This document shows positions 18,001 through 51,857 of a DNA stretch of 64,000 bases, piece after piece. The stretch's first letter is position 1; every line of letters starts with the position of its first letter. The translations under genes and the position numbers were made by a program. The stretch comes from Collinsella aerofaciens. GTDB lineage: Bacteria > Actinomycetota > Coriobacteriia > Coriobacteriales > Coriobacteriaceae. The stretch lies in contig DBGBCW010000015.1 of the NCBI GenBank assembly GCA_048478035.1, forward strand, positions 29,962 through 93,961, read 5' to 3'. A model generated the notes under the pieces. It was given only the letters and a program-made list of their open reading frames with translations, did not search any database and had not been told where the DNA came from.

Positions 18001-18826
18001 CGACGGCACGGTCGCTCTCAGCCCCGTCACCTACACCGCGCCCGGCACGCACGGCTATGAGCTGCGCGAGGTCACCGGCACGGCGGGCGGCGTGACGTAC
18101 GACAGGGCGACGTACCGCGTGCGCACGACGGTCACCGATGCCGGAAACGGCATGCTCACCGTCAGGCACGAGCTGGCGGATGCCGAGGGCAATCCCACGG
18201 GCGGCGACTCGGTGACGTTCACCAACGGCTACGAGGCCGCGCCCGTCACCCTCAAGCTGGGCGCCGCCAAGGTGCTCAAGGGCGCCGAGCTCAAGGCGGG
18301 CCAGTTCAGCTTTGAGCTCAAGAGCCGGGACGGCAAGGTCATGTCGACCGCCAGGAACGCCGCGGACGGCGGCGTCACGTTCGATGCGCTGACGTTCAAG
18401 CAGGCCGGCACCTACACCTTCACGGTGAGCGAGGTCGACGACGGCCAGGCGCACGTGACCTACGACAAGGCGGTGCGCAAGATCGTCGTCACGGTGAGCG
18501 ACGAGGCGGCAGACGGCACCAGGACGGGCTACCTGTCGGCGAGGGTCTCCTACGAGGGCGACGCCAACCTGCCGCCGGTCTTCACCAACAGCTACGCCGA
18601 GAATCCCGGGACCCCCGGCACCCCCGAGAACCCCGGCACGCCGGGCGGCGGCTCAGGCGGCGGTTCAGATAACGGCTCCGGCAGCGGCTCCGGCGGCGAC
18701 GGCTCCAAGGGCGGCATGCCCGACACCGGCGACCGCAGCCTGCCGGTCGAGGCGCTCGCGGCCATGGCCGGCATCGGCGCGCTGGCCGTCGCGGGCGGCG
18801 CGGCCCTGTACCGTAGGCGCCGCTAG
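12032..18826 (+). CDS. Giant cell-wall-anchored adhesin: fibro-slime/PA14-like domain, Cna-B/SpaA-type and pilin-isopeptide-like repeats, LPxTG-variant anchor. The frame is open from 11957.
   Basis: FEFSGDDDVWVYIDGVLVGDLGGIH (fibro-slime/PA14-like). VEKKWVGP...YTVAEDAVEGY (Cna-B). Many GEFxF...TFTNTY repeats. Gly/Ser/Pro spacer, then MPDTG, a hydrophobic helix and an RRRR tail. Confidence 0.85.
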   Translation: MYNPTTNSFNVYNSAGVYKSKVLDTNLGQFFPFDSAGKVFKEENGQLSPIGITDDENDKLNHHFGMSMTTEFVQPNGGKTTKNEDMIFEFSGDDDVWVYIDGVLVGDLGGIHEKATLKINFATGGVHVGHVDNANDPEKTIQDTTIRAMFEAAGADATNFSGNTFLGSTKHTLSFFYLERGAGASNMSLKFNLTTLPSSEVAKVDQNGEAVNDATFGLYRSGGPDCDWNTGELVARGTTENGGQLILRKLKPGDSEPSDSVLSFDEEHNKNHCDYFVLKEENLPAGYRSSLTSSTTATPGELHLQYKPAAATGSGGVVVAPQTTVETADGEQWKGSRMWLNGGYLAAKETISLHKDTQDNKGHVISSGTTFAVVLKRTDENKSDTDENAWTAVTGNPLKGYKLCSKHGIEGAVEAARSADTSVFGVNTNDDYEVTVGSLPGDIEKYAAMMTDMSKAEYTVAVYHTTASSLAGATKDNTSMVQYRATNRQFSTVIHLTNVQNRLFVQKVDDLGKPVNGATFELYKAEDVTGDSPSTYAIEVGATPYDTVQANGMTYPYDIEGAACFPLDSKNHKPLIKGTYYLRESESPDGYEINNTITKVIVDDSGVYVDAGEMSDGVRSMSGPGSLIASLAQFGSPDSIDNTLTHIKGKLQSAVVDANGNLTWGPTSPADNWMHMRYDKTTQGTKTVLCYVENGGERDGKLATIFADTGINRMALYQDDDATNGTDLGTLQLNHLFTTATAVQYTDAAKVSVPVEKKWVGPAAAKATVRLLADGKDTGKSIELNESNNWKGSFKDLAKYSKSGSEVAYTVAEDAVEGYSSKVTGDAGRGFTVTNTVKTGELDVSRTVVAREGLAVDADKIFKFVVEATDAMGRKVSGTYGDATFEDGGATLKLKDGQTARITGLPAGTAYTVTERAADGYKAAVNGAEGSRADGSISADQVAAAAFTNTFDPAPATASVPELTKVLAGGRKPGLQEGEFTFVLSLTDGAGNVLEGYPIEAKNNKDGKVSFGELSFTNLGTYHATVTEKANGDVLIEDDAHAYTFDITVTQTGAGLKAEISNERGKKTFTNTFTPHDNTKTVTKADASGARVDVDGKPVGVGDTLTYTIGWANNSVDDRGAAQAADVTVTDVLPKGVDYVEGSADGAAYDAATRTLTWSLGEQTAGAAGTLSFDVKVSAEAAVVDDIANTATVEVGENESQTNTTHNSVPREGSLTVKKTVVGGDSQREFGFAVTLTDGDGEPVSGTFGKGENAVTFADGKATFTLKDGGEKVIAGLPVGVHYTVTEDAAEGYTTAVNGADGSKAEGAVTEDGATVAFTNTYGTAAEGRDVSTAGLFTKTLEGRDWAEGDSFQFALAGEGGAPMPEGSADGSKTVSVTAAAGTKAGDRVAFDFGSIRYTLDDIKDAGFAEVGGKRVRAKTFTYEVREVRPDDGSAIAGVDYDGHAATMTVTVTDDGSGNLTATTPAIAQVSGGDFVNTYTTELDYSARAGVRLSKTLSGRAMEAGQFAFTVTADAETAAKLGLKTGKDAYAVAAADDGEADLGDLVGGAAESDVKFTDADAGKIYSFTVTETKLGGEGYTNDTTPRTVTIAPGYDAATGRLTVTTTVAKDGAEVARSEVSTADDAMATPAPVTVAFQNSYEATGTLGGEGNVAINATKTLTGRAAAAGEFSFSVRDARGNVVATATNQASGDGEAAGLAFSPIAYTIDALERMVADGTATRAADGSWVIPYTVSEDGTDRLPAGVTATASSFDITVKVADDAKGGLDVSVVYPEGSGGTLPFVNGYSAGEATVNLAGTKTLALGQAGLGLTQADIAGKYTFKIEPLDGAPAPVDALGKTVTEATNDAAGNVELGHVTFRQPSDLDDVEIDRDGLRTKTFAYRVSESGSVDGVVNDATATKTFTVSVVEDTNAGTLVAKVLPAEGTPEGKGAFEFTNTYGVNPTPSSVTDQITVNKKLKGRDLVEGEFEFQLVEIAADGSESVAATGGNAADGTVALSPVTYTAPGTHGYELREVTGTAGGVTYDRATYRVRTTVTDAGNGMLTVRHELADAEGNPTGGDSVTFTNGYEAAPVTLKLGAAKVLKGAELKAGQFSFELKSRDGKVMSTARNAADGGVTFDALTFKQAGTYTFTVSEVDDGQAHVTYDKAVRKIVVTVSDEAADGTRTGYLSARVSYEGDANLPPVFTNSYAENPGTPGTPENPGTPGGGSGGGSDNGSGSGSGGDGSKGGMPDTGDRSLPVEALAAMAGIGALAVAGGAALYRRRR

Positions 18827-19032: not shown

Positions 19033-19192
19033 GCGCGGTTTTACCAAACCGCGCAATGCTCGACGCTGCGCGCCACCCAGAGCGACAATTTGTCATTCAA
19101 AAGGCAAGGCATGACCAGAAGGTCTATGCCTCGCCTTTTTCATGCCAACTTGTTCGCTCTGGGTGGCGCTCGCTGGCTTTGCCAAAACATCG
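19033..19192. repeat. Q element copy 1: ~160-nt multi-hairpin repeat (candidate ncRNA or MITE)
   Basis: Homologous to 61169-61331. Shared blocks are gctcgacgctgc, ccagagcg, ggcatgaccagaaggtc, tcgctctgg and gccaaaacatcg. Stems are conserved through compensatory changes. Confidence 0.6.
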
Positions 19193-19445
19193 ATGGCTAC
19201 GCGGTCCAGGAGGCGGCGAAGTGTTTGGCGTCTCGCTGGTCCTCGGCTTTGCCTGCGGGATCGCTCGACTACCAAACAGCCCGCCGGCACCGGAACCGCA
19301 TCGTCCAAAAATCACCCGTAAAGGCGCGTTAGCCTAATTAAATCTATCCCTTAAGGAATGCTGCTCGTTGGCGTTGTCTGGGCATTGATGGCTATGTGGT
19401 TCAAGAGGCGGCGGTGCTGTTGCTTGAATTTTTGCAGTTAAAGAG

Positions 19446-20575: not shown

Positions 20576-20790
20576 CTCGGCACCTCATTTCAAGGGTCGG
20601 CGACTAACTTGGTAGCACTAATGTAAGTATATCAGGCGGTTTGCCCGACACTGGCTGGGTGTGCGCGTGCCTTTCCGCTTCTTTGGAAACCGAATCCCAT
20701 TAGAAATGACGAGTTGTTTACGCTTCTTTTGGGCTCACCGTACTATCATGATTCGAATTGAATGTGGATGATGATAGGGAGCGCCTTTTT

Positions 20791-22635
20791 ATGATTGAGC
20801 TGCTTAGGCGTTTTGGTGGTAAGTTTCGCCGGTATATGGTGATCGGCCCTGCGTGTAAGCTGATCGAAGTGATCTTTGACCTGCTGACGCCGCTGGTGAT
20901 TGCCCAGATGATCGACAAGGGCATTGGCTCGCACGACGTGAGCGCCGTTATCCACTACGGTATGCTACTTGCCGCCATGGCCGTGATCGGCATCTCGTTT
21001 ACGCTCGTCTGCCAAAAGATGGCGGCGCTCACCTCGCAGGGCATGGGCACCGACATTCGCGGCGCGCTCTACGAGCACATCAACAAGCTGAGCTATGCTG
21101 AGCTCGACCGCTTTGGCACGCCGTCGCTCATCACCCGCATCACCAACGACGTTAACCAGGTCCAGCTCGCTGTGGCGCTGGGCGTGCGCATGCTCATCCG
21201 CTGGCCCTTTCTAGCGGTGGGCTCCATGTGCGCGGCCCTTGCCATCGACCTTAAGCTCGGCATCATCTTTTTGATCTGCACGCCCGCCATTGGCCTGGTG
21301 TTCTGGGTTGTCATGGCGCGCTGCATTCCGTACTACAAGCAGCTGCAGGCAAAGCTCGACCGCATCGCGCTTATCTGCCGCGAGGGCCTTTCGGGCGCCC
21401 GCGTGGTTCGCGCCTTCGTGCGCGAAGATCACGAGCGCGAGCGCTTTGCGCAGGCCGCCGACGACCAGGCCAATACTGCCATCGCGGTGGGCAAGCTCTC
21501 GTCGATTCTCAACCCCGTCACGTTTTTGGTGATGAACCTGGGCGTGTGCGCCATCCTGTGGGTGGGCGGCATTCAGGTCAACGTGGGCGAGCTCACGCAG
21601 GGCCAGGTCATGGCGTTCGTCAACTACATGACGCAGACCCTGACCTCCATCGTGTATGTCGCCAACCTGGTCGTGGTCTTTACCAAGGCGAGCGCCAGTG
21701 CGTCGCGTCTCAACGAGGTGCTCAATTGCGTGCCGAGCATCACCGACGAGGGCAACCAGCCGGTCGCGCTGCCCAAGCCGGGCAATGTCGCTCCCGTTCC
21801 TGCGCTGAGCTTGAGCCATGCGAGCTTCTCGTTTGGCGCCGGCGCGGCCAATGCTGTCAACGATGTGACGCTGGAACTCCCACTGGGCAAGACGCTCGGC
21901 ATTATTGGCGGTACGGGCAGTGGTAAGTCCACGCTCGTCTCGCTCATCCCGCGCCTGTACGACACGGGCGCCGGCAGCGTGTGCGTGATGGGTGCCGACG
22001 TGCGCGCTTGGCCGCTCGACCAGCTGCGCCATGTGGTTGCGACTGTTCCGCAGCGCGCGTCGCTCGTGAGCGGCACGATCCGCAGCAACCTAACCTGGCG
22101 CGACGAGTCGGCGGCCGACGAGGAGCTTTGGGCGGCGCTCGATATGGCGCAGGCCAGCGAGTTCGTGCGCAACAAGCCGCAGGGGCTCGACGCCCCGGTC
22201 GAGGCGGGCGGCAAGAACTTCAGCGGCGGTCAGCGCCAGCGCCTGACCATTGCGCGTGCCCTGGTGGGCTCGCCGCAGGTTCTGATCATGGACGATTCCG
22301 CCTCGGCGCTCGACTTTAAGACCGACGCGGCGCTTCGCCATGCCATCCGCGAGCGCAGCGCACGCGGGGCCGCCGCGGGCGGACTCCCGCTGACCACGGT
22401 GATCGTGAGCCAGCGCGTCTCGACCGTGCGCGATGCCGACATGATCTGCGTGCTCGACCACGGCTCGGTCGCGGGCCTGGGTACGCACGACGATCTGTAT
22501 ACGACCTGCCAGCTCTATCGCGAGATTTGCCAGTCGCAGCTGCGCCGCGAGGAGCTCGAGGGCCAGCAGGGGAGCGCGACGCCCGCATCCGCCCCGGCTG
22601 CCCCGGCATCCACGTGCGCAAGGGAGGGCTGCTAA
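20791..22635 (+). CDS. ABC exporter, fused permease/ATPase half-transporter (pair 2, subunit A)
   Basis: AGGGAG RBS before ATG 20791. Walker A GGTGSGKST, signature FSGGQRQR, Walker B VLIMDDSASALD. Confidence 0.9.
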   Translation: MIELLRRFGGKFRRYMVIGPACKLIEVIFDLLTPLVIAQMIDKGIGSHDVSAVIHYGMLLAAMAVIGISFTLVCQKMAALTSQGMGTDIRGALYEHINKLSYAELDRFGTPSLITRITNDVNQVQLAVALGVRMLIRWPFLAVGSMCAALAIDLKLGIIFLICTPAIGLVFWVVMARCIPYYKQLQAKLDRIALICREGLSGARVVRAFVREDHERERFAQAADDQANTAIAVGKLSSILNPVTFLVMNLGVCAILWVGGIQVNVGELTQGQVMAFVNYMTQTLTSIVYVANLVVVFTKASASASRLNEVLNCVPSITDEGNQPVALPKPGNVAPVPALSLSHASFSFGAGAANAVNDVTLELPLGKTLGIIGGTGSGKSTLVSLIPRLYDTGAGSVCVMGADVRAWPLDQLRHVVATVPQRASLVSGTIRSNLTWRDESAADEELWAALDMAQASEFVRNKPQGLDAPVEAGGKNFSGGQRQRLTIARALVGSPQVLIMDDSASALDFKTDAALRHAIRERSARGAAAGGLPLTTVIVSQRVSTVRDADMICVLDHGSVAGLGTHDDLYTTCQLYREICQSQLRREELEGQQGSATPASAPAAPASTCAREGC

Positions 22636-24495
22636 ATGAATCCGTACACTTCGTCCGGTTCGGTCGCCACGATGACGGCCAATGTGTCCGGCAACGACAA
22701 GCTCAACGACCTGGGCGACGGCCCACGCCAGCCTGGCGACCCTGAGCGCTATCCCGTGGGCGCGGTGACCCGCCGCCTGATGGGCTACGTCCGTCCGCAC
22801 CGTATTTCGTTTACGGCGTCGTTTGTGAGCGCCGCCATCTCGGTGATCTTGCAACTCTATACGCCCATCCTCATCGGCGAAGGCATCGACCTGATCGTCG
22901 CCGCCGGACAGGTGGACTTCGATGCGCTGCTGCCGCTTGTCACCAAGCTCGCGATTGTCGTCGTAGGTGCTGTGGCCTTCCAGTGGCTGCAGGGCTACTG
23001 CGTTAACCGCCTGTCCTACGAGACAGTGCGCGACATGCGCGTGGAGGCGAGCGACAAGCTCAGCCGCATGCCGCTCAGCTTTATCGACAGCCATGCCCAC
23101 GGCGACCTTATGAGCCGCGTGGTCAACGATGTCGACCAGGTTGGCGATGGCTTGCTGCAAGGCTTCACGCAACTCTTTACCGGCGTTATCACCATTGTGG
23201 GCACGCTCGCGTTTATGCTCTCCATCAACCTGACCATGACGCTCGTGGTGGTGCTCGTCACGCCGCTTTCCATTTTTGCAGCCGGCGCCATCGCTAAGCT
23301 TTCCAACAAGAGCTTTACGGCACAGCAGCGCATTCAAGGTCAGCTCGGTGGCCATATCGAGGAGTATGTGGGCGAGCAAAAACTGGTGGATGCGTTTGCC
23401 TACGGCCCGAACGCCCAAGCGCGCTTCGACGCCCTCAACGCCGAGCTCTATACGGCAGGCGAGCGCGCGCAGTTTATGGGTTCGCTCTCCAACCCCGGCA
23501 CGCGCTTTATCAATAACATCATCTATGCCGTGGTCGCTGTGATCGGCTGCGTGGGCGTGATCACGGGCGTGCCCGCGGCGCTTACGGTGGGCGGCGTGCA
23601 GATTTTCCTGTCCTATGCTAACCAGTACACCAAGCCGTTCAACGAGGTTACCAACGTCATTACGCAAATCCAGACGGCGTATGCCTCGGCGCGCCGCATG
23701 TTTGCACTGCTCGACGCCCGCGAGCAGGAGCCCGATGCGCCAGACGCCGTGGAGCTTGCCGCCCCGCGTGGCGAGGTGACTTTTGAACACGTGGACTTTA
23801 GCTATGTGCCCGACCGCAAGCTGCTGCAGGATATCTGCATCGAGGCCAAGCCCGGCATGCGTTTTGCCCTGGTCGGCCCCACGGGCTGCGGAAAGACAAC
23901 GCTCATCAATTTGCTGCTGCGGTTTTACGATATCGATGCCGGACGCATCATGGTCGATGGCCGGTCTTCGCGTGGCTACACGCGCGCAAGCCTGCGCCGC
24001 GCCTTTGGCATGGTGCTGCAGGATACGTGGCTGTTCGAGGGCACGGTGGCGGAAAATATCGCTTACGGTTGCCCGGATGCCACGCGTGAACAGGTTATCG
24101 AAGCCGCCAAGCGCGCGCACGCGCACAAGTTTATCGTGCAGCTGCCAAGCGGCTACGATACGGTCATCGGCGAGGACGGCAGCATGTTTAGCCAGGGTCA
24201 AAAACAGCTGCTGTGCATCGCGCGCGTCATGCTCACCGACCCGGCGATTCTGCTGCTGGACGAGGCGACGTCGAGCATCGATACCCGCACCGAGCTGCAG
24301 GTGCAGGCGGCATTCGACGAGCTTATGGCCGGCCGTACGAGCTTTGTGGTGGCGCATCGCCTGAGCACCATCCGCAACGCCGACTGCATTCTGGTGATGC
24401 GCGACGGCGAGATTATCGAGCGCGGCACGCACGACGAGCTGCTAGCGACAGGCGGCTTCTACGCCGAACTCTACCGCAGCCAATTCGCCCAGTGA
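22636..24495 (+). CDS. ABC exporter, fused permease/ATPase half-transporter (pair 2, subunit B)
   Basis: The ATG directly abuts the upstream TAA. Walker A GPTGCGKTT, signature FSQGQKQL, Walker B ILLLDEATSSID. Confidence 0.9.
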   Translation: MNPYTSSGSVATMTANVSGNDKLNDLGDGPRQPGDPERYPVGAVTRRLMGYVRPHRISFTASFVSAAISVILQLYTPILIGEGIDLIVAAGQVDFDALLPLVTKLAIVVVGAVAFQWLQGYCVNRLSYETVRDMRVEASDKLSRMPLSFIDSHAHGDLMSRVVNDVDQVGDGLLQGFTQLFTGVITIVGTLAFMLSINLTMTLVVVLVTPLSIFAAGAIAKLSNKSFTAQQRIQGQLGGHIEEYVGEQKLVDAFAYGPNAQARFDALNAELYTAGERAQFMGSLSNPGTRFINNIIYAVVAVIGCVGVITGVPAALTVGGVQIFLSYANQYTKPFNEVTNVITQIQTAYASARRMFALLDAREQEPDAPDAVELAAPRGEVTFEHVDFSYVPDRKLLQDICIEAKPGMRFALVGPTGCGKTTLINLLLRFYDIDAGRIMVDGRSSRGYTRASLRRAFGMVLQDTWLFEGTVAENIAYGCPDATREQVIEAAKRAHAHKFIVQLPSGYDTVIGEDGSMFSQGQKQLLCIARVMLTDPAILLLDEATSSIDTRTELQVQAAFDELMAGRTSFVVAHRLSTIRNADCILVMRDGEIIERGTHDELLATGGFYAELYRSQFAQ

Positions 24496-24570
24496 GCAAG
24501 CCCGTGGGGCAAATTAATCAGGTTTGTTTGTCCCATAGAGCGATCTTGTTATATAGCGTTCTACCAGCGC

Positions 24571-24662
24571 GTGAAACATTTTGACGATACTCCGTGACAC
24601 AATTTGACGGCGTTTTGTGAAACAGTTTTTCGGCCATTCGTGAAACGTTCTGCGGCGGTTTC
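24571..24662. repeat. Four phased 23-bp direct repeats (iteron-like) in a low-GC spacer
   Basis: GTGA(A/C)AC starts at 24571, 24594, 24617 and 24640, exactly 23 nt apart. Consensus is GTGAAACAnTTTGaCGGCnnTTc. Confidence 0.7.
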
Positions 24663-24812
24663 AATCCGAAGTACATACTGTTCGAAATCTGTCCAAAGAT
24701 GTCGTCTGCGTCGCCAATCGACAGACGGTGGTTTACATCTGTTACGTTAGTACTAAGATATTCATCTAATAAATTGCAATAGTGGCTTTAGTTTTGGGGG
24801 AAACGAGGCAAC

Positions 24813-25370
24813 GTGACTATGACGTGCTCTTTGGTGGTTAACAGCAAGAGCGGTAATACCAGGATGGTTTCGGGTGCGATCAAGCGCGCTCTGCAGGCTG
24901 CGGGCGTTGAGTTTGTCCACGCTGCGGCGTTGAGCGACGATGCGGACGCAGATCAGGTTGCGCTCGAGGCGCAGGGCGCCTGCGCGGCCGACACGGTGCT
25001 CGTCGGTTTTTGGTGCGACAAGGGTGCGTGCACGCCTTCGGTCGCGGCGTTGCTCTCCGCCTTGCACGGCAAGCGCGTCTTCTTGTTTGGCACCTGCGGT
25101 TTTGGCGCCGACCAGAGCTATTACCAGCAGATTATCGACCGCGTGACCTCCAATTTGGCCAACGATGCCGAGCTTGCGGGCTGGGCGATGTGTCAGGGCA
25201 AGATGGGCCCCGCGGTCAAGCAGCGCTACGAGGCCATGCTCGAGCAAGATCCCGACAATGTCCGCTTTAAGATGCTGCTCGATAACTGGGTCGCTGCAAA
25301 GGATCACCCCACCAAGGAAGATCTGGACAACATGGCTGCAGCCGCCAAAAAGGCCGTGCTGGGGGAGTAG
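24813..25370 (+). CDS. Flavodoxin-like protein
   Basis: N-terminal flavodoxin-type phosphate-binding loop (LVVNSKSGNTRMV) and a conserved FGTCGFG segment. GTG 24813 with an upstream GAGG. Confidence 0.65.
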   Translation: MTMTCSLVVNSKSGNTRMVSGAIKRALQAAGVEFVHAAALSDDADADQVALEAQGACAADTVLVGFWCDKGACTPSVAALLSALHGKRVFLFGTCGFGADQSYYQQIIDRVTSNLANDAELAGWAMCQGKMGPAVKQRYEAMLEQDPDNVRFKMLLDNWVAAKDHPTKEDLDNMAAAAKKAVLGE

Positions 25371-25412
25371 CTCCCATCGCTGACGGCGGTCGGTCCATCT
25401 TTCTAAATGAAA

Positions 25413-25541
25413 CGTCCTCCCGGGCGTCGGGGCACGAAGTTCCCTGCTCTACAGTCCTGCGCAAGACGAAGGCCACATTAAGTGGCCTTCTTTGTGTGCG
25501 GAACTCGCGATGAACTTCGTGCCCCGCCGTCCGGGAGGACG
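25413..25541. repeat. P element copy 1: ~130-nt palindromic structured element
   Basis: 30-nt arms 25413-25442 and 25512-25541 pair at 28 of 30 positions. Central hairpin gaaggccacattaagtggccttc (25468-25490). Homologous to the inverted copy at 30789-30919. Confidence 0.7.
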
Positions 25542-25584
25542 CCTCTTTATTGATGGGAGGCCTGATAGGTCGATGGTTCCGTGC

Positions 25585-26049
25585 CCGGATGCGTCCAAAG
25601 TGGGACGGGCTTTCCGGATGGTCAGGCTTTCGAAAAATGCGTCCCGGAATTTGCCTTTGGAATGGGACGTAGTTTCCCGTTGAGGTGCTTTGCGGAAAGT
25701 GCATCCCACTCTGGGCGGTCGAAGTGGGACACACTTTCCCAAAGGCGCTCCAACGGGAAATTGCGTCCCATTATTCGGTCAAGAAACGGGATGCATTTTC
25801 CCAATGAGAGCAAAACCGGAAAATGCATCCCACAATCAGCCCTCAAAGTGGGACGCCGTTTCCCAATGAGGCTCAAGCGGAAAATGCATCCCGGAATTTG
25901 CGCTCAAAGTGGGATGCGGTTTCCGGTTGAGGGTCTAAGGGGAAAGTGCGTCCCAGAATCGACGCTTGAAATGGGATGCAGTTTCCCGATGAGGCACTCG
26001 ACGGAAAATACATCCCAGAAATGGCCTTTGAGCTGGGATAAGATTTCCG
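25585..26049. repeat. Array 1: BIME-like tandem array, 8 units, 62-nt period
   Basis: Arms tGGGAYRCNNTTTCCc start at 25601, 25663, 25725, 25787, 25849, 25910, 25972 and 26034. They alternate with inverse arms cGGAAANTGCRTCCC. Confidence 0.85.
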
Positions 26050-26135
26050 CGGCATCTCGGATTCTCAAAAATGAGACACGCCGTTGGCGAAAATGAGACA
26101 CGTGATATCGGGTATCGGATGTATCATTTGCAAAA

Positions 26136-29100
26136 ATGAGTCCACTCCACTCGAATAAAGCGAGGTCCCTCATGTACGTTCCACACCCCCGTATCCGTAG
26201 GCTGTCGAAAATCCCGCTTGTTGGGACGGCGGCGCTTGCTGCGTTGATCGCCACGAGCGTCGCCTGCTTCACGGCCACGCCCCAGGTTGCCCAGGCGGCA
26301 GACGCGCCCGCAATCACCGATATGACCGAGCAGGATTATCAAGCCCTGGGTCTGGGCACGAGCGAGGACATTCCGGCCGATACCATTGGCCCCTATTCCA
26401 CTGATACCCCCACGACGTTTGCCACGCGCAGCGAGGTCTATATGGCAGCTAACGGTAGCCATGGCAATCGCTACACTCTGCGCGACAAGCTCGAGAACGT
26501 CGAGCGCGGTGACATTGGCGGCAGCAGCAAACTCACCGATGGCTATGGAAGTGTGTGGGGCGCCGCAAAGTTCTGGCAAAACGTCAACAACTTCGATACG
26601 AACAGCGATCTCTACAAGCATAGCGACTACGGTGGCGGCACCTGGTCGTACCTAAGCAACAATGAGTCCTCAACAGTACTCGCCAACGACAACAACGGTT
26701 TCTCGGGCATTCACGCCACGAGTGTTGAGTTCTGCAGCGACGCCAGCACGGGCAAAAAGAGCCGCGTTGCCGAGCTCCGTGCCTACGGCGACAGTTCCTC
26801 CACGACGATTGACGGCAAGTCATACGCCGGAAAGGTTGAGCTGGTCCTCTACTCGTTTAGCAACGGGCGTACGCGCACTCTCGACACACACCTGCCGGTG
26901 ACGGTCAACACTAATATGATGTACGAAGGCCGTTTTAAGTACCTGGATGCCGGTTACCTGCAAGAGCACGACGCCGTCTTTGATGTCGAGGCGGGCGATG
27001 TCGATGGCGACGGCATCGACGAGCTTTTTGTCTACGCGGGCTGCTATGTCGACGAGAACGGCGTGCGCAAGGCTGTAGTCGACATGTATGACTTGGAGGG
27101 CGGCAACTGGAAGCAAAGCGTCGTCAAGATCGATGCCGGTAACGCCGTGGACTACACCACGCACAACAAGGGCGGGAACGACTCCTGGACGCAGCTTCAG
27201 TCAGCTCCTGTCGTTTCGCTAGCGGCCGGCGACCTCGATCGCGATTTTTGCGATGACCTCGCCATCGTGGTCTCGGCACCCTACGGCAAGAAGAATATTG
27301 ATAAGTCGACGCATTGCGAGCTGTTTTCGTGGGATGCATCCAAGGGTGCGCTCGTCCATGTCGATGCTCTGGGCGACGCGGGCGCAATCTCCCTCTCCGC
27401 GAACGGCAAGACCATGGTCGCTGCGAATGCGACGTTCGGCACGTTTGCCGCCTACGATGAAGAAGGAAAGAAGACGGGTGAAACCGTCACGGGCCTTATT
27501 CTTGCGGGCTATGACTGGCAACGCAGCGCTTTTGATTACGGCGCTTCTGACGGCAGCAAGGGGCTGTACGGCGCGCTGTACCGCTACGCGTATTTTGACT
27601 CGGAGTCTGGCGAGTTCAAGCTTTCCGATTGCAAGGAATACAGAGACGGGCTCCTCGCCTCCTATGGGCTGATGCATGTGCCCAACAGCGCATGGAAGGA
27701 TAGCGCTCAGGATAAGCGCTATCCGTGCACCTTGGCGCCTATTGCCCTTGCCACTGCCAACCTTGACGGCCTGTCCGAGCAGCTGGCGGTCGACGAGGTG
27801 CTCGTGGGCGGCGATGTGTTCCGCGACTTTGCCTGCAACACGGCACAGAGCGGGGCTCAGGGCTTGGGGTCCATGGTCGGAACCATGAGCATGAGCGGTC
27901 AGCAATACAACAGCAGCAACAAGCATGACCACAAGGGTATAGAGCAGGTGTGGATCAGCGACGTCAAAGCGGGCAGCGTCTCGGGTTCGGACCGCTATAA
28001 CGAGAGCTTTATCGCTGTGGTGGGCAAACACCGCGACGAGGACCTGCGCAAGAACGATGACTACTATTGGATGACCGCCTCGCATTTTTCGCTCGACGAG
28101 AACGGAAAGGTGCGCCGCGGCGAGGAGCAGGTGATTAGCGAGAGCAACCGTCGCGGCACTACCTACGGCACATTTATCTCGCTCGCGCTGCCCGATGTCG
28201 ACAACGACAGCGTCAAGATCACGTACAAGGATCGCTACAAGGTCTATACCAACCCGCGCGTGCTTGCCGTGCTGCAGGATGCGCCCTATGTTGAGGATCT
28301 GGAGCAGGCATACGGCTATCTGGTGTTGGGCGGCACGTCATACGGAGAGGAAAAGGGCACGGGGACATCCCAGGGCTATACCATTGGCGCCGAGTTGGGC
28401 GTTGCCGTCGAGGTGCAGACCGGTCCGCCCCTGGTCGCGATGAATGCTTCAGTCGATTTTGCCGCCGAGGGATGCTATGACTACCGGAGCGAGCGCACGG
28501 TCAGCGCAAGCGTAAGCTATGAGTCGCATGCCGGCGAGGGTGACAAGGCCGTGCTCTACACGATTCCGATGGTCTATTACGAGTATGAGATCGAAAATGA
28601 GGAAACTGGTGGCAAGGGCGTGATGGCGGCGCCCGTGTCGCTCGGCGCGCAGACCTCGGTCGTTAATGTCGAGGCCTATGACCGCATTGCCAAACAGCAC
28701 AATATGACGCCGCTCAGCTACTTTTTGACCAACCGGTCGGGAGAACCCGGAACCTATCAAACGACGCTCAACGGCGAGACTCCCGTTGGGGATTCCTTTG
28801 GCCTGGGCAAGCCTGGCGTAACGCGCGCCTACACGCACGATGGGTTTAACGGCGCCGCCGCGCAGTCGGGGGCGAGCATTGAGCAGACCATCGAAGTCGA
28901 AGAGGGCAAGGAGCAGGAGCTCGAGCTCGGCTTGACGCTGAACGGCAGCGTTGTCATGGGCGCGAAGCTCGCAAAGCACGAGTTGTTTGGCGGCCTGTGC
29001 TTTGGTGCCAACGCCGGCTTTACTACGGGTAACTCCTCGAGTGAATCGACCGAATACGGCGGCACCGTCGACAACCTGCCCGAGGCCGCGCAGGGCAAGT

Positions 29101-30260
29101 ACGGTTTTGTGTGGCGTCTGGGCGTCAACGCGGTGGATGTCGACAAGTTCGAGGCAGACTCGGGCGACAAGCTCGGCACCAAGGACACCGACCAGTTCTG
29201 GATCGTGGGCTATGACGTTAAGGACGTCGAGATGCCCGACGCGCCGGCCGTGACGGGCTTTACGGCAAACGCTGTTGATTCGACAAGCATTACCTTTAGC
29301 TGGGACGATGTGCTCTCAAAGAAGGACGGCTTTAGCTACGGCGTGGGCATGCTGCAGAGTAATGCAGCGGACGCGGTTGTGAACAGCTGGAAGATCGCCG
29401 ACAACACGCAGGCCTCGCTTAAGTGGGATGGGCTGTTGCCGAATACGGAGTATCGATTCGCCATCGCCGCCGTTAAGAATGATTCAACGGCCGAAACGGG
29501 TATTCGCTCGGCGATCATCACGGTCAAGACCATGCCCGATGGCATGACGATGACCGTGAGCGGACCTGCGGCGGATACAGCGGAGGGGTCGGATCTTGGA
29601 TACGACTCTTCGGTTGAGCGCGCGGCGGGAAGCTACCTGACGCTCTCGGCGATTGGCCATGTGAAGCAACTCGGTGCCGACGATAGCGAAACAGGGCTGG
29701 CACCGACCTATATGTGGTACCGCAAGGGCCGCGGCGAGACAGAGTTTAAGCTCGTGGGTGCCGATGGCAACCTCGCGGCTGGAACGGCCTCAAAGCTCGA
29801 GATTGACCTGACCGCAGACGATGACGGTGCGCAGTATTACTGCCACGTGGGATACAACGACGTGGGCCTCGACACCGGCACGACGCTCGTGAATATCGAG
29901 GCCGAGGAGACGGCGCCCACAACGGTGAACGCCACCCCGATCCGCACGCGCCGCCTGTTCTCACAGGCAAGTGCGGGCGCCAAGAAGTTCCTGGACCATA
30001 CGCTGGTAAACACCGCCGGCCCAACCGATTCCGAAGGCTCAAAGGACCCCGAGACTCCTGAGACCCCGACGAACCCGGACAAGCCCAAGTCCGACAACGG
30101 AGCTAAGACCGACACCAAGGTCAAGACTACGACCACAGCGAAGAACCTCGCAAACACCGGCGACCAAACATTCGCCCTAGTCGCCACCGCAGCAGCAGCG
30201 GGAGCAACGCTCGTAGTGATAGCCCTCATCATGCTGATCAAGCGCCGCAAGACCCACTAG
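26136..30260 (+). CDS. Large LAxTG-anchored surface protein with FG-GAP/VCBS-like repeats and an FN3-like domain
   Basis: Signal peptide (LVGTAALAALIATSVACFTATPQVAQA). Asp-rich repeats DVDGDGIDELFV and AAGDLDRDFCDDLAIV. FN3-like segment SITFSWDD...LPNTEYRFAIAAV. C-terminal LANTG, TM helix and KRRK. Alternative start is ATG 26172. Confidence 0.85.
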   Translation: MSPLHSNKARSLMYVPHPRIRRLSKIPLVGTAALAALIATSVACFTATPQVAQAADAPAITDMTEQDYQALGLGTSEDIPADTIGPYSTDTPTTFATRSEVYMAANGSHGNRYTLRDKLENVERGDIGGSSKLTDGYGSVWGAAKFWQNVNNFDTNSDLYKHSDYGGGTWSYLSNNESSTVLANDNNGFSGIHATSVEFCSDASTGKKSRVAELRAYGDSSSTTIDGKSYAGKVELVLYSFSNGRTRTLDTHLPVTVNTNMMYEGRFKYLDAGYLQEHDAVFDVEAGDVDGDGIDELFVYAGCYVDENGVRKAVVDMYDLEGGNWKQSVVKIDAGNAVDYTTHNKGGNDSWTQLQSAPVVSLAAGDLDRDFCDDLAIVVSAPYGKKNIDKSTHCELFSWDASKGALVHVDALGDAGAISLSANGKTMVAANATFGTFAAYDEEGKKTGETVTGLILAGYDWQRSAFDYGASDGSKGLYGALYRYAYFDSESGEFKLSDCKEYRDGLLASYGLMHVPNSAWKDSAQDKRYPCTLAPIALATANLDGLSEQLAVDEVLVGGDVFRDFACNTAQSGAQGLGSMVGTMSMSGQQYNSSNKHDHKGIEQVWISDVKAGSVSGSDRYNESFIAVVGKHRDEDLRKNDDYYWMTASHFSLDENGKVRRGEEQVISESNRRGTTYGTFISLALPDVDNDSVKITYKDRYKVYTNPRVLAVLQDAPYVEDLEQAYGYLVLGGTSYGEEKGTGTSQGYTIGAELGVAVEVQTGPPLVAMNASVDFAAEGCYDYRSERTVSASVSYESHAGEGDKAVLYTIPMVYYEYEIENEETGGKGVMAAPVSLGAQTSVVNVEAYDRIAKQHNMTPLSYFLTNRSGEPGTYQTTLNGETPVGDSFGLGKPGVTRAYTHDGFNGAAAQSGASIEQTIEVEEGKEQELELGLTLNGSVVMGAKLAKHELFGGLCFGANAGFTTGNSSSESTEYGGTVDNLPEAAQGKYGFVWRLGVNAVDVDKFEADSGDKLGTKDTDQFWIVGYDVKDVEMPDAPAVTGFTANAVDSTSITFSWDDVLSKKDGFSYGVGMLQSNAADAVVNSWKIADNTQASLKWDGLLPNTEYRFAIAAVKNDSTAETGIRSAIITVKTMPDGMTMTVSGPAADTAEGSDLGYDSSVERAAGSYLTLSAIGHVKQLGADDSETGLAPTYMWYRKGRGETEFKLVGADGNLAAGTASKLEIDLTADDDGAQYYCHVGYNDVGLDTGTTLVNIEAEETAPTTVNATPIRTRRLFSQASAGAKKFLDHTLVNTAGPTDSEGSKDPETPETPTNPDKPKSDNGAKTDTKVKTTTTAKNLANTGDQTFALVATAAAAGATLVVIALIMLIKRRKTH

Positions 30261-30290
30261 TAGCCAGTCGAACATATCGACAACCCAAAA

Positions 30291-30330
30291 ACCCGGGTAG
30301 CCAAAAAACAGGCCACCCGGGTTTTCTGTT
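30291..30330 (+). terminator. Rho-independent terminator of the surface-protein gene
   Basis: acccgggtagcc / ggccacccgggt stem followed by tttctgtt. Confidence 0.8.
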
Positions 30331-30348
30331 GAGTGGAGACTCCGCAAG

Positions 30349-30703
30349 CGGAAACTGCATCCCGCAATTAGCGCCCGGAACGGGACACATTTTCCGTCAA
30401 GCCCTCATCCGGAAAATCCATCCCAGTTTGAGCGCCCAGACCGGGACGCACTTTCCCAAAGGGTTCTCAACGGGAAACTGCGTCCCATAATTAGGCCGAG
30501 AAATGGGATGAACTTTCCCAATGAGAGCCAACCGGAAACCACGTCCCAGAATCAGCCCCCAAAGTGGGACGCACTTTCCCAACGAGCCTCAACCGGAAAA
30601 TACATCCCGGAATCCAGCTGAATAGTGGGACACACTTTCCCAATCGGGTCCCAAGCGGAAACTGCATCCCATTCCAGACAAGAATTCTGGGACACGGTTT
30701 CCG
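30349..30703. repeat. Array 2: BIME-like tandem array, 6 units, 61-62-nt period
   Basis: R arms start at 30381, 30442, 30504, 30565, 30626 and 30688. L arms start at 30349, 30410, 30472, 30533, 30594 and 30656. Same consensus as array 1. Confidence 0.85.
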
Positions 30704-30788
30704 GATGCAAAAAGGCCACATGACGTGGCCTTCAACTTATATATGTTCAGCAGATGTCCCCATGACAAGCCGCGTTTCAACACTGAGG

Positions 30789-30919
30789 CGTCTGCCCGGC
30801 GACGCGGAACGTAAGGTTCATCGCGAGTTCCGCACGAGCCGGAGAGCACTTAATGTGCTCTCCGTGCGAGCAGGACTGTCCGAGCAGGGAACCTTACGTT
30901 CCGCGCCGCCGGGCAGACG
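30789..30919. repeat. P element copy 2, inverted relative to copy 1
   Basis: 31-nt arms 30789-30819 and 30889-30919 pair at 30 of 31 positions. Central hairpin ggagagcacttaatgtgctctcc (30841-30863). Shares gtgcggaactcgcgatgaac with copy 1 on the opposite strand. Confidence 0.7.
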
Positions 30920-30938
30920 AACCAGTTAAGACGCGCCG

Positions 30939-33239
30939 CTACTTGATCTTGGTCGTACCCGGCGCCAAGTTGGGGTCGGTCTCGTTGGCCTCGGTCTGGA
31001 AGTGCTCGGTGTACACGTTCTTGCCGTCGCGGAACATCTCGTAGTACTGCATCTTGGCGTAATCCTCGCGCGCCTTGGTGGCGGCTGCGGCTTCGGCGTC
31101 GTCACCGGTGACGTTGGAGGAGAGCGCCCAACGCAGGCTGGCGTCCTCGTAGCCCACGGAGTTGATAGCGGGCAGCGACTCGCGCAGCGTCACGTGCGCT
31201 TTCTGGTAGTCGGTCAGCGGTGCGCCGATCAGCTGCATCAGCTGCGTGGACAGGTAGTTGGTGGACAGGTCGTCGACCTCGCTTGTCTGGTCGCAGCCGG
31301 CAACGTCGTAGTTGGCCCAGATGATGTAGTCGGTCTGCCACAGACGTTCCTGGTGCGTGGCGTCGTCTTCGCCGGTAAACCACTTGTCGTTGAACTTGGA
31401 CGGGAAGAACGGCTGGTGGTCGCCCCAGAACACCACGACTACCTTACGGTCGAGCTTGCTCAGGGCGTTTAGGAAGTAGCGAAGCGCCTGGTCGGACTGC
31501 TCGATGCACGAGACATACTCGTCGACATCGGAGAGCGTGCCGTCCTCGACGGTCTTGGCATCCAGATCGGTCGTGTCGATATTCAGGTGCATCTGCTTAT
31601 CGACCGGCAGCAGACCCGTATCGTAGCCCGAGTGGTTCTGCATGGTCACGTCGAAGATAAACTGCGGATCGGCGTTCTGGTCGAGCAGCTCAAGAATCTT
31701 GTCGTAGGTAGCCTGGTCGGTCACCATGCCGCGCAAGGTGTCGGCTCCCTGGAAATCGTTGATGGACAGGAACTGGTCAAAGCCAAAGTCCTTGTAGACG
31801 TTCTCGCGGTTCCAGTTGGTTGCGTGATTGGGGTGCATAGCCGTGGTGGAATAGCCGAGCGATTTGAACTGCTCTGCCAGGTTCCCGGTCGTTTCCATGT
31901 TGTAGATGGTGTAGGGGTACACGCCCGAGCCGAGGTTGGCCATGGAGTTGCCGGTCATAAACTCAAACTCGGTATTGGCGGTGCCGCCGCCGTAGGCGCT
32001 CACGTAGAGCTTGCCGCGGCTGAGGCAGTTGGACAGGCTCTTAAAGTACTGCGGGCCCTCGTAGCCGGCGCGCATGTTCTGATAGATCGACAGATCCGAG
32101 AAGGTCTCGTTCATGATGGCGATGACCGTGGGCTTCTCGCTGTCGAACTGCTCCTTTGCGGCGGTGCGCTCGTCACTCTTGGCTGCGTCGGACTTGTCGT
32201 AGGTCTTGGCGTACTTTTTGAGCGTGGCCTTGGCATCGTCGACGGAGTAGTCGGCGGGTTTGGGCGGCTTGATGGACTGCGCTGCACTAATAAAGGCGGG
32301 CAGGTAGCCCTCGCGCCAGTAGCTCTCGAGCGGGCGCCAGGTATAGACGGTGATGCCGAGGGTGTTGTAGTAGTCGATGAGCGTGACGTGCGCGGTCACG
32401 CCGCCCAGGCACAGCACGGCGACGAGCAGATTGGTGAGCAGCATGCGCTTGGCGTTGGCGGCGCCCTTCTGACGGTGCGGTGCCACCAGGCCGGCGTACT
32501 CGCACAGCAGCATAGCGATGGCGGTAAAGCCCATGGACAGCACGCAGAACAGCGAGATGGAGAAGGTGTAGCCGGTGCCGGCGACCGCGGCGGCGGTGGA
32601 GATGGCCGAAAGGTCGCCCGGCTGGATGGGCATGGATTTAAACGTGATGACGAAGAACTCGGCAATGCCCAGGACAAAGAGGGCAAAGGCCAGGACCGCG
32701 GGAGCTGCGCCGTGGCGCTGGAACAGGAAGAACAGGCCGACCATGAGCGTGGTGATGATGGCCCACTCGAGCAGGATGCACAGGGGGTAGACCCAGGTAA
32801 AGTCGTGGTTGGACGAGACCTCCATGCCCAGCAGCGCAAAGACGCCGGCGAGCAGCAGGCACAGGACGGCGGCGACGAGCGGTTTGCCCACAAAGGCGCC
32901 GCGCAAACGAGCGAGCTTGCCGGTGGGGGTGGGCGCATCGGCCGAGGCGAACGCAAAGACGCGCGGGGCGATGCGGTCGCGGGCGATACTGGCCCAAGCG
33001 CAGCCGGTGAGGATGGCGTTGGTCAGGATGAGCATCACAAAGGCGAGCGGCTCGTTTTGGGCGACGAGGCCAATGGCGCCCCAAATGGTCAAAAAGAGCT
33101 GGAACAGGCCGAAGGCGACGCTCCACCCAAGAGCGCTTTTGGCAACGGTGCCCGACTGAGCGCGAATGGTCTTGGCCTCGCGCAAAACAAGGTAGACGGT
33201 CGCCGCAAGACCGACGAGCGAGATGGCGGCAGCGAACAT
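30939..33239 (-). CDS. LTA synthase family protein (multi-TM N-terminus plus extracellular sulfatase-type domain)
   Basis: About 9 TM helices, then a sulfatase/LtaS-like core (VIAIMNETFSDL, GGGTANTEFEFMTGNS, TAMHPNHATNWNR, MQNHSGY). GAGGAG RBS before ATG 33239. Confidence 0.85.
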   Translation of the reverse strand: MFAAAISLVGLAATVYLVLREAKTIRAQSGTVAKSALGWSVAFGLFQLFLTIWGAIGLVAQNEPLAFVMLILTNAILTGCAWASIARDRIAPRVFAFASADAPTPTGKLARLRGAFVGKPLVAAVLCLLLAGVFALLGMEVSSNHDFTWVYPLCILLEWAIITTLMVGLFFLFQRHGAAPAVLAFALFVLGIAEFFVITFKSMPIQPGDLSAISTAAAVAGTGYTFSISLFCVLSMGFTAIAMLLCEYAGLVAPHRQKGAANAKRMLLTNLLVAVLCLGGVTAHVTLIDYYNTLGITVYTWRPLESYWREGYLPAFISAAQSIKPPKPADYSVDDAKATLKKYAKTYDKSDAAKSDERTAAKEQFDSEKPTVIAIMNETFSDLSIYQNMRAGYEGPQYFKSLSNCLSRGKLYVSAYGGGTANTEFEFMTGNSMANLGSGVYPYTIYNMETTGNLAEQFKSLGYSTTAMHPNHATNWNRENVYKDFGFDQFLSINDFQGADTLRGMVTDQATYDKILELLDQNADPQFIFDVTMQNHSGYDTGLLPVDKQMHLNIDTTDLDAKTVEDGTLSDVDEYVSCIEQSDQALRYFLNALSKLDRKVVVVFWGDHQPFFPSKFNDKWFTGEDDATHQERLWQTDYIIWANYDVAGCDQTSEVDDLSTNYLSTQLMQLIGAPLTDYQKAHVTLRESLPAINSVGYEDASLRWALSSNVTGDDAEAAAATKAREDYAKMQYYEMFRDGKNVYTEHFQTEANETDPNLAPGTTKIK

Positions 33240-33453
33240 GCTGAGACTCCTCACAAACTTAAAACCTACGAAAGCGGGGGTTTACCCGATTGTTACCTAA
33301 ATATGCGCTGCATTTGCGGGCTGCGCACAACAACCAGCCATATTAACGCGCATGTGCGGCGGTGTGGCTCAATGCAGTGGCGACCTGCGCGATAATGGAC
33401 GGGAATTACACGGAAACGTAAAGGCTTCTTAAAGAATTAGCGAGGATGAGGCG

Positions 33454-34302
33454 ATGAACGAGCAGGTTTGCACCAAGGCTGTGGATACGTGTGGCTATCC
33501 GGTCGAGACCACGGGCAATGCGGTGCTGGACACGTTGGAGCACCGTTCCTCCACGCGTGCCTTCGCGCGTGATGACGACGATCGTCCCGTGGCGGTGACC
33601 GACGAGCGGCGGGCGGCGATTCTGCATGCGGCGAGCCGTGCGCCGTCGGCAGGCGCCATGATGATGTATTCCATCGTGAGCATTCGCGAGCAGGCTACGC
33701 TGGATCGTCTGGCCGACCTGTGCGACCACCAGCCCATGATCGCCAAGGCGCCCTGGGCACTAATATTTGTGGTCGATTATGCCAAGTGGATCGATCTGTT
33801 TGAGCACGTGGGCTGCTTTGAGCCCGAGTTTGTCGAGCGCACGGGTAAGGCGCCCCGCCGCGCGCCGGGTTTGGGCGACTTTGCCATCGCGGCCCAGGAC
33901 GCCGTGATCGCCGCGCAAAACGCCGTGGTCGCCGCCGAGGCCCTGGGGCTGGGGAGCTGCTACATCGGCGATGTTATCGAGAATGCCGAGGAAGTTGCCG
34001 GGCTGCTGGACTTGCCGCCCTATACCATGCCGCTGTCGATGCTCATCATCGGCACGCCCCGTAAGGAGCGTCCGGCCATTGCGCATCCCGTGGTGAACCT
34101 GGTGCACGAGGAGCGCTACTGCCGCGCCGATGCCGCGACCATGGACGCGCAGGTGGCCGAGATGGACGCGATGTTCCGTCCGCATGCCCGCGTGGTGGGG
34201 GAGCGCGTCGTGGACATCTATACCCGCAAGCACACGAGTCCCTTTATGGCCGAGATGAGCCGCTCCATGGAGTGGTGGTTCAAAAATTGGCTCGGAAAAT
34301 GA
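33454..34302 (+). CDS. Nitroreductase family protein
   Basis: Nitroreductase motifs (HRSSTRAF, APSAGAMMMYSIV, AAQNAVVAAEALGLGSCYIG). Confidence 0.8.
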   Translation: MNEQVCTKAVDTCGYPVETTGNAVLDTLEHRSSTRAFARDDDDRPVAVTDERRAAILHAASRAPSAGAMMMYSIVSIREQATLDRLADLCDHQPMIAKAPWALIFVVDYAKWIDLFEHVGCFEPEFVERTGKAPRRAPGLGDFAIAAQDAVIAAQNAVVAAEALGLGSCYIGDVIENAEEVAGLLDLPPYTMPLSMLIIGTPRKERPAIAHPVVNLVHEERYCRADAATMDAQVAEMDAMFRPHARVVGERVVDIYTRKHTSPFMAEMSRSMEWWFKNWLGK

Positions 34303-34306: not shown

Positions 34307-34335
34307 TGCGACAAAGAGACAGTCCCTTTGTCACA
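34307..34335. repeat. Conserved palindrome family copy
   Basis: tgcgacaaagagacagtccctttgtcaca, 5 nt after the nitroreductase stop codon. Confidence 0.7.
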
Positions 34336-34461
34336 TTCCATATCGCCGAGGTGGCTTAAAGGCCGTATAAATGTTTATCTAGCTGGGAAAACAGTGCCAT
34401 TCAAACATGGGCCGATTACCTATAATTCCTTCGAACATTAAAGTTGGGAGGAAACCGGCTT

Positions 34462-51847: not shown

Positions 51848-51857
51848 TTGGCAATTG

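Follow-up and report, generated by a model that had tools for sequence, protein, structure and literature searches.

A new interspersed repeat as a probable driver of structural variation around a surface-protein gene in Collinsella

Repetitive extragenic palindromic (REP) sequences and bacterial interspersed mosaic elements (BIMEs) are known both as targets of insertion sequences (ISs) and as join points of rearrangements. BIMEs consist of regularly spaced units that alternate in orientation and are separated by a few types of linker (PMC2817692), and the REP families are characterized by a GTAG or CGTC tag, a stem of 8-9 bp, and a loop of 4-5 nt (PMC3733652). The dRS3/NIME arrays of Neisseria are intergenic arrays of units bounded by inverted repeats, and they flank variable regions and surface-protein genes (PMC1797815). 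In this work, we describe a repeat family of comparable organization in a 64,000-nucleotide stretch of a Collinsella aerofaciens-group genome (contig DBGBCW010000015.1; the whole stretch is referred to below as the window), in which two arrays of a 14-nt box, GGAAANNRCRTCCC, lie on either side of a surface-protein gene, between a flavodoxin gene and a convergent gene for an LtaS-like (lipoteichoic acid (LTA) synthase-like) protein, with a palindrome of ~135 nt, here called P, at each outer edge. Collinsella is an abundant, strain-rich genus of the human gut, and little is known of its cell-surface variation; the locus offers a concrete mechanism by which recombination between repeat arrays may remove or swap surface and biofilm-matrix gene modules between strains. 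The explanation that we consider likely is that a new family of BIME-like repeats undergoes homology-driven rearrangement within a hypervariable cassette site.

Among described systems, BIME/REP clusters come closest to the Collinsella arrays in architecture, and the dRS3/NIME arrays of Neisseria, together with the "minimal mobile elements", form the closest biological parallel; a literature search found no description of the Collinsella repeats themselves. Like REP/BIME clusters, the arrays are extragenic, are apparently restricted to one genus, occur at many sites, and are built of short alternating units at regular spacing in variable copy number, whereas the box, unlike those families, is not self-complementary, forms no 20-40-nt palindrome, and has no sequence similarity to them. 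Membership of the CGTC-type REPs was considered and rejected, given that the CGTC lies inside the box and is not an unpaired tag beside an 8-9-bp stem with a 4-5-nt loop. REPIN doublets differ as well, in that adjacent Collinsella boxes pair at the shuffled expectation, without the joint evolution of a hairpin. With Neisseria, the locus shares alternative cassettes between the same conserved flanking genes across strains; it differs in phylum, in sequence, and in the strict 62-bp period of its arrays, and the dRS3 element is a 20-bp palindrome (ATTCCC-N8-GGGAAT) of the CGTC-1 REP type, which the box is not, and Collinsella is not known to exchange genes through natural transformation. Clustered regularly interspaced short palindromic repeats (CRISPRs) resemble the arrays in their regular short repeats, their period of ~61 bp, and their strain-specific loss of blocks through repeat-repeat recombination, a likeness that allows the Collinsella units to be typed in the manner of "spoligotypes"; they differ in that the boxes are 14 nt long and alternate, rather than being 23-55-nt direct repeats that all point the same way, in that the "spacers" are conserved between units, in that the arrays are many, small, and scattered, and in that no cas genes were found near them among the window's open reading frames and domain matches. 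A composite transposon is likewise a poor comparison, in view of the direct arrays and of a window locus that holds no IS; elements of this kind occur in the locus of some other strains only (L001 and L010, in the handles used here for comparison contigs), as secondary insertions.

The two core genes that delimit the locus are conserved and convergent, and all nine features that a first-pass annotation had listed between and beside them were found, at or within a few bases of where it had placed them. They are given below in window coordinates, together with the remaining features needed in the text; array features carry no strand.
24819 to 25370, plus strand: flavodoxin gene (Flavodoxin_3), left core gene, ATG start at 24819, NCBIfam BilS equivalog
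25411 to 25549, plus strand: P1, imperfect palindrome of ~135 nt, from fold and covariance model
25602 to 26048: array 1 (units A1-A15), 15 boxes, the last degenerate
25797 to 25805: left copy of the 9-nt tract TTTCCCAAT, inside array 1
26050 to 26171, plus strand: region upstream of the surface-protein gene, read from the sequence
26172 to 30260, plus strand: surface-protein cargo gene, 1362 aa; its longest open reading frame begins at 26136
30288 to 30338, plus strand: intrinsic terminator of the surface-protein gene, a hairpin fold followed by UUUUCUGUU
30350 to 30702: array 2 (units B1-B12), 12 boxes
30636 to 30644: right copy of TTTCCCAAT, inside array 2
30712 to 30732, minus strand: small terminator-like hairpin, a GC-rich stem followed by UUUUUG
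30781 to 30921, minus strand: P2, the second P palindrome, from fold and covariance model
30939 to 33254, minus strand: LtaS-like membrane protein gene with a Sulfatase domain, right core gene, from domain search
56500 to 56669: third array, 6 boxes

The boxes of an array alternate strictly in orientation with a period of 62 bp, and the 61-62 bp reported by Tandem Repeats Finder corresponds to two oppositely oriented boxes; among the matches listed, start-to-start spacing is 32 bp from a plus to a minus box (410 cases) and 30 bp from a minus to a plus box (321 cases). With at most one mismatch, 33 copies of the box are found in the window where 1.3 would be expected, and none of 100 shuffles reached 33. 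Arrays 1 and 2 are in direct orientation, as the first-pass annotation had it, and are also colinear, units A5-A10 finding their best matches in B4-B9 at 78-87% identity along one diagonal, with units within and between arrays being 50-87% identical overall. The third array is bounded on one side by an ABC-transporter gene's stop and on the other by the start of a gene for a GGDEF diguanylate cyclase, and its orthologues in four other genomes hold 5-6 boxes; the box repeat is thus not specific to the surface-protein gene but belongs to a dispersed family. A scan for the box pattern in one genome per species matched at least 120 stretches, and, among those listed, arrays occupy about 18 distinct genomic sites in the sample, all of them intergenic and, as far as crude gene calls can place them, mostly between convergent or co-directional genes, as REP/BIME clusters are, with a few between divergent genes. 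All listed stretches carry Collinsella, Coriobacteriaceae, or unnamed metagenome-assembled genome (MAG) labels with one exception, a MAG labelled "Ruminococcus" whose genes are 97-98% identical to Collinsella genes. A second locus with paired arrays lies next to a xanthine-dehydrogenase gene (L033, L040, L050, L054), where the arrays stand 1.5-3.2 kb apart around a 332-aa protein of unknown function and where the content again varies, an ATPase_2/DUF234 gene also lying between the arrays in some genomes. No gene for a Y1 transposase, the type of enzyme (REP-associated tyrosine transposase, RAYT) that accompanies REP/BIME elements, was found among the window open reading frames examined.

For the comparison of strains, the exact flavodoxin protein, which is recorded in 235 blocks of public assemblies, served as the anchor; the set for the locus comprised 10 contigs with 10-kb flanks, 80 metagenome contigs, and the orthologous subset of the genome matches. 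The contigs were mapped for genes, boxes, and P, the array units were typed against the window's A1-A15 and B1-B12, and junctions inside arrays were mapped by gapped alignment. Across about 90 related contigs, the interval between the flavodoxin and LTA-synthase-like genes is hypervariable. Among the ~63 metagenome contigs that can be classified, the surface gene is present in 23, the site is empty in 17, a SipW cluster occupies it in 21, and a single contig carries a sugar-utilization cargo (a GntR-GH4-PTS-beta-lactamase-fold cluster). The SipW cluster follows directly after the array, and its genes code for a signal peptidase of the SipW type, for TasA/BsaA-like proteins that depend on SipW, and for a protein of 1820 aa; two cargos can also stand in tandem, in either order (L148, L154, and L162 versus L202). 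Empty sites consist of the flavodoxin gene, a single array of 5-7 boxes, P2, and the LtaS-like gene, and no fewer than six distinct unit strings are found among them. Where a site is empty or holds an alternative cargo, its single array begins with A1- or A2-like units and ends with B11- or B12-like ones. Array 2 has 12, 8, 6, 5, 4, 2, or 0 boxes in other strains, and the box number at one site ranges from 0 to 17. Cultured isolates are found both in the gene-carrying state (L093, C. aerofaciens D52st1) and in the alternative-cargo state (L114).

The junctions connect these states to the arrays. The most informative is that of the gene-less contig L026, whose one array consists of A2-A7 (30-31 of 31 bases matching in each sliding window) followed by B10-B12 (31 of 31), the two parts being joined in register at the common tract TTTCCCAAT, which is present at 25797-25805 and at 30636-30644 in the window; the part of L026 that precedes the junction is colinear (95%) with contigs that carry the gene and lack P1 (L143, L159). 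A second empty type (L173) joins the single array of the alternative-cargo state to the B12 tail through an 18-nt identity tract. Within arrays, whole periods are lost at identity tracts of 7-20 nt: in array 2, deletions of 123 bp (17-nt tract) and of 307 bp (19-20-nt tract) each occur in three contigs, a deletion of 184 bp is in register, and one contig lacks 123 plus 122 bp, while array 1 has lost A2-A9 (247 bp) and A5-A8 (124 bp), both in register. Other losses from array 2 are out of register (223 bp with 4 nt of homology and 215 bp with 0 nt), L205 has lost the whole of array 1 at an ATGAC microhomology, and L202 joins its two cassettes without any array. The crossover tracts fall in plus boxes, in minus boxes, and in spacers, following the longest local identity with no fixed cleavage point, which argues for events driven by homology or microhomology and against a site-specific enzyme. 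The flanks vary as well: contigs with the identical flavodoxin (L001, L010) are 99.8% identical to the window left of the locus (24000-25842), whereas the right flank (30650-33832) is only 92-95% identical in several contigs (L001, L003, L007, L010), and L026 shows the reverse, with 97.9% on the right and ~94% on the left; the locus is a recombination mosaic.

ISs have also entered the locus in some strains. In L001, a 1284-bp element (L001 11025-12308) with terminal repeats GGGACTGCGGAC, an rve-type transposase, and CCC on both sides takes the place of window positions 25843-30649, a span that starts within array 1 and ends within array 2; its two ends are not in register with the arrays, a layout consistent with either a deletion mediated by the IS or recombination between two copies of it. 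L010 carries an unrelated IS3-type rve element (L010 10785-12224) with a 3-bp target duplication, AAG, beside box A1 (~25599-25601). Derivation of the arrays from the ends of the L001 element was considered and set aside, the two having in common GGGAC and a nearby TTTCC, a likeness too weak to carry it.

In the mechanism that we propose, the space between the flavodoxin and LtaS-like genes is a hypervariable cassette site, which here holds the surface-protein gene, and the arrays act as substrates for homology- or microhomology-driven recombination or for replication slippage. The strain comparison shows this directly: the arrays gain or lose whole 62-bp periods, recombination of array 1 with array 2 probably removes the 4.8-kb gene and leaves one hybrid array, ISs accumulate in the arrays, and the same boundaries delimit alternative cargos in other strains. 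As to origin, one ancestral array may have been duplicated around the gene, a likely route being Campbell-type integration, in which a segment carrying the gene plus an array enters by one crossover with an array in the chromosome; the reverse reaction would yield an empty site with a hybrid single array. The first-pass annotation had put the gene forward as possible cargo and had predicted its presence or absence with a single merged array, and both expectations are borne out across related genomes, by the alternative cargos at the same site and by the hybrid arrays of L026 and L173. Its further suggestion of array-mediated deletion or amplification divides: the merged array of the deletion type exists (L026), but no duplicated surface gene or tandem amplification was seen in ~35 gene-carrying contigs. 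On/off variation of the surface antigen likewise applies between strains, none having been observed within one strain, and the arrays act as rearrangement sites in the in-register events, whereas several other rearrangements fall out of register, show 0-4 nt of homology, or involve ISs. The view of the arrays as a device of the surface gene gives way before a family that is spread genome-wide, with about 18 sites in the sample.

The P palindromes stand apart from the arrays. P1 folds at -95.7 kcal/mol (z -12.6) and matches the covariance model at 151.7 bits, and P2 folds at -116.2 kcal/mol (z -9.9) with a match of 146.9 bits; P1 starts 42 nt past the flavodoxin stop and P2 18 nt past that of the LtaS-like gene, each being in the sense of the gene upstream of it. 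Nine arm haplotypes share one structure of 53 pairs, 21 of which show compensatory double changes; the apical loop, like the internal loops (CCUGCUC..ACAGUCCUGC and GUGCGGAACUCGCGAUGAAC), is invariant. The arm haplotypes are fully compensated in their pairing. Chimeric copies, with arms of different haplotypes, fold poorly and have broken arms, which places crossovers in the conserved centre of P and makes it a further recombination breakpoint. A terminator scan marks the apical hairpin of P1 (25468-25490) followed by TTTGTGTG as terminator-like, and P2 sits between the LtaS-like stop and the small hairpin at 30712-30732, whose stem resembles the apex of P1 (repeat D6, 91% identity) and which, with its minus-strand stem followed by UUUUUG, is a terminator-like site for the LTA-synthase-like transcript. 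At empty sites P2 remains with the LTA-synthase flank, whereas P1 is missing from most of them and a canonical terminator stands in its stead; L026 and L091 have an ordinary terminator in place of P1, and all that L091 keeps of P2 is a remnant with an internal deletion. Contigs with cargos in tandem have a P1-type copy after the final gene of the SipW cluster. The idea in the first-pass annotation that the P pair forms the two ends of one bracket, with P-array-P as a unit, is contradicted by this distribution, in which P2 outlasts P1 and P1 also follows a different gene. An exact-core search had suggested that P is confined to one locus, a suggestion that we discarded when the covariance model found a full P-like copy with unrelated arms at an unrelated locus (L098 4339-4475, -102.6 kcal/mol), as well as a shorter variant downstream of the signal recognition particle (SRP) RNA gene. 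We infer that P is a separate small family of structured palindromes of ~135 nt and not the outer bracket of a cassette; our preferred guess is that it is probably a 3'-untranslated region (3'-UTR) hairpin or a terminator. Very long intergenic hairpins are also found (window 19070-19168 and ~19200-19300; L092 5167-5272), and downstream of the SRP RNA gene a near-perfect palindrome of ~100 nt accompanies the shorter P-like variant; Collinsella seems to be rich in such "super-hairpins".

What the boxes themselves are bears on how the arrays are to be read. Ten box positions are nearly invariant and the centre is variable, positions 7-10 almost always following a Y-R-Y-R pattern (TGCA 20%, CGCA 18%, TGCG 14.5%, CGCG 4.7%, and also TGTG and CGTG), which looks like the pattern expected from transitions at two CpGs, that is, the decay of an ancestral CGCG, and which may point to 5-methylcytosine at CpG in the Collinsella source organism. 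Across 565 non-identical adjacent box pairs (298 plus/minus and 267 minus/plus), the Watson-Crick fraction at variable positions compares with that of shuffled pairs as 0.35/0.36, 0.49/0.48, and 0.45/0.50, and G-T and A-C mismatches between adjacent boxes are equally frequent; with no co-variation between neighbours, the box appears to be kept as a sequence and not as a hairpin. GGAAA and TCCC lie about one helical turn apart, and the fixed 30/32-bp phasing brings all boxes to roughly one side of the helix; the box would most likely be a protein-binding site repeated on one helix face. The corresponding alternative holds that the arrays are functional binding arrays for a Collinsella-specific protein (nucleoid-associated, regulatory, or insulating), with GGAAA-N5-TCCC phased every three helical turns and recombination as a side effect; it overlaps the inferred part of the rearrangement explanation and adds a selected function. 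In addition to the near-invariant positions, the spacing (near-constant at 32/30 bp, about 3 x 10.5 bp), and the missing co-variation, it can appeal to orthologous sites that keep their arrays across many genomes classed as separate species and to a polymorphism that is lower at core positions than in spacers. However, no candidate protein was identified, convergent, tandem, and divergent contexts follow no clear rule, a single site may have anywhere from 0 to 17 boxes, and the polymorphism comparison is biased by ascertainment, and we therefore regard a selected binding function as a tentative possibility. Transcribed hairpin arrays that stabilize or terminate the flanking transcripts, as proposed for 3'-UTR REP/BIME, would suit the ability of neighbouring inverted boxes to pair, the predominance of sites whose flanking genes are convergent or co-directional, and the folding of array 1 on the minus strand, which is somewhat better than that of shuffles (z -2.6); yet the plus-strand fold does not surpass shuffles (z -0.7), neither co-variation nor a G-U versus A-C strand asymmetry is found over the 565 pairs, dedicated terminators already flank the arrays, and some arrays lie between divergent genes. 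Nor is there an Rfam match: only the SRP RNA and one tRNA lie above the gathering threshold in the window, and a permissive scan of 25300-31000 returned weak microRNA-type hairpin noise only. A role of this kind is unlikely.

A dedicated, integron-like site-specific exchange at the boxes or at P, with the surface gene and the SipW cluster as mobile cassettes, would account for exchangeable cassettes at one site in both orders and for cassette boundaries that coincide with array boxes or with P, an imperfect palindrome in a post-stop position whose variable, compensated stems and conserved unpaired bases are reminiscent of attC. Against such an exchange stand the crossovers, which vary over boxes and spacers, track the longest local identity, and in some cases have 0-4 nt of homology; the P copies, which are mutually inverted, are missing from some cassette ends, and lack the attC R''/R' cores, RYYYAAC/GTTRRRY not being found at their ends; the joining of two cassettes in L202 without an array; and the failure to find an integrase gene (IntI) adjoining the locus among the window's open reading frames and domain matches. 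We regard it as very improbable. A related and more ambitious proposal, which we also doubt though somewhat less strongly, is that the GGAAANNRCRTCCC boxes, and possibly P, are recognition sites of a putative Collinsella protein, with the arrays as active, programmable boundaries of cassette exchange; if true, a gut actinobacterium would possess an integron-like or insulator-like system rather than passive repeats, and in a weaker form of the proposal P would be a new class of structured 3'-UTR RNA. There is, finally, the question of whether presence/absence and array-length differences are repeat-collapse artefacts of short-read metagenome assembly, given that the comparison draws mostly on MAG or metagenome contigs assembled from short reads, some at low coverage (many 1-nt indels in L201, for example). 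Junction tracts of at most 20 nt and unit identities of 50-87% make collapse by the assembler unlikely, being far below assembler k-mer sizes, and in addition the same variants recur across independent samples and assemblers, isolate genomes are found in different states, and empty-site flanks are fully colinear with both core genes; we give this account scarcely any credence.

Homology-driven rearrangement at the box arrays, to which we now return as the explanation that we favour, has to be held against several observations that weigh the other way. Efficient RecA recombination in E. coli is usually said to require ~25 nt of identity, and the identity tracts at the junctions, at 9-20 nt, fall short of this figure, so that RecA, slippage, and single-strand annealing are each candidate mechanisms. 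There are also junctions that fall beyond the arrays or are associated with an IS, and the arrays are thus not the sole route. The hybrid array of L026 fits the insertion of a gene-plus-array block as well as it fits a deletion, the direction being not proven, and every empty site comes from MAGs or metagenome contigs, none from cultured isolates. The restriction of the box to Collinsella holds among the matches listed and is not proven beyond them. The evidence for the protein-binding idea consists of conservation, fixed spacing, and absent co-variation, and the polymorphism of 7.4% in the core versus 10.8% in the spacers is biased by the way in which boxes are detected. The fold of P, lastly, is lower in the sense strand in 28 of 64 copies and in the antisense strand in 35 of 64, which amounts to no consistent bias toward either strand. 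Whatever the enzymology, the box arrays are a likely source of assembly breaks and of gene-content differences in Collinsella MAGs, and the family, unusually strict in its architecture, is a possible strain-typing marker akin to spoligotyping.

The cargo of the window locus is a large surface protein. The open reading frame 26136-30260 has 1374 codons, and gene calls in related contigs start at the ATG at 26172, which is preceded by a GAGG ribosome-binding site. The product has an fn3 domain and a weak FG-GAP match, and it combines a hydrophobic N-terminal segment (signal peptide) with a C-terminus that reads LANTG-DQTFALVATAAAAGATLVVIALIMLI-KRRKTH, so that the signal peptide, sorting motif, hydrophobic segment, and positive tail of a sortase-anchored (LPXTG-type) protein are all present; LAXTG is the motif of class E sortases. 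From these features, the protein is predicted to be secreted and sortase-anchored; no relative was found in PDB or NCBIfam. Between array 1 and the gene start, at 26061-26140, lie three direct copies of AAAATGAG(A/T)C (repeat D18), which may be promoter or regulator sites, the region 26050-26171 being a candidate promoter. The terminator hairpin downstream (30288-30326) folds at -31.1 kcal/mol with z -5.4 and is followed by UUUUCUGUU. The comparison of GC content and codon usage with neighbouring genes that the first-pass annotation had suggested places the gene within their range (GC 0.597, third-position GC (GC3) 0.75, codon-usage distance 0.17 versus 0.15-0.25 in neighbouring genes), and on this likeness a foreign origin was rejected. 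The gene is intact in most strains and has 1-nt frameshifts in a few, some of which may be assembly errors. Phase variation through homopolymer tracts was also considered and rejected, the few 1-nt frameshifts lying in short runs, with a single recurring allele, in four contigs.

Several further observations concern the surroundings of the locus. The flavodoxin at 24819-25370 scores 168.5 bits against an NCBIfam cut-off of 155 for BilS, the flavodoxin partner of bilirubin reductase. In one strain alone, a DUF4143 gene (L003 8403-9272) lies between the flavodoxin gene and an ABC-transporter pair, and a DUF4143/AAA_14 gene is also found near arrays in L050. The large gene at window ~14400-18600 contains many internal direct repeats (families D3, D9, D14, and D17) and represents a second large surface protein less than 10 kb from the locus; in a related contig (L008), a SpaA/Cna_B/DUF5979 surface protein of 2264 aa is annotated ahead of this same ABC-transporter pair, on its upstream side. 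The window holds three paralogous ABC_membrane plus ABC_tran exporter pairs (1500-4300, 20758-24495, and 56842-59500), which are 70-79% identical in nucleotide sequence along stretches of several hundred bases. Another repeat family, represented by TGTGACAAAGGGACAGTCCCTTTGTCACA, an almost perfect palindrome of ~30 nt, has four copies in the window, at 4218-4251, 34307-34340, 51819-51852, and 62956-62989, one copy standing directly after a nitroreductase stop, between convergent genes; its ends, TGTGA...TCACA, resemble a CRP-type site.

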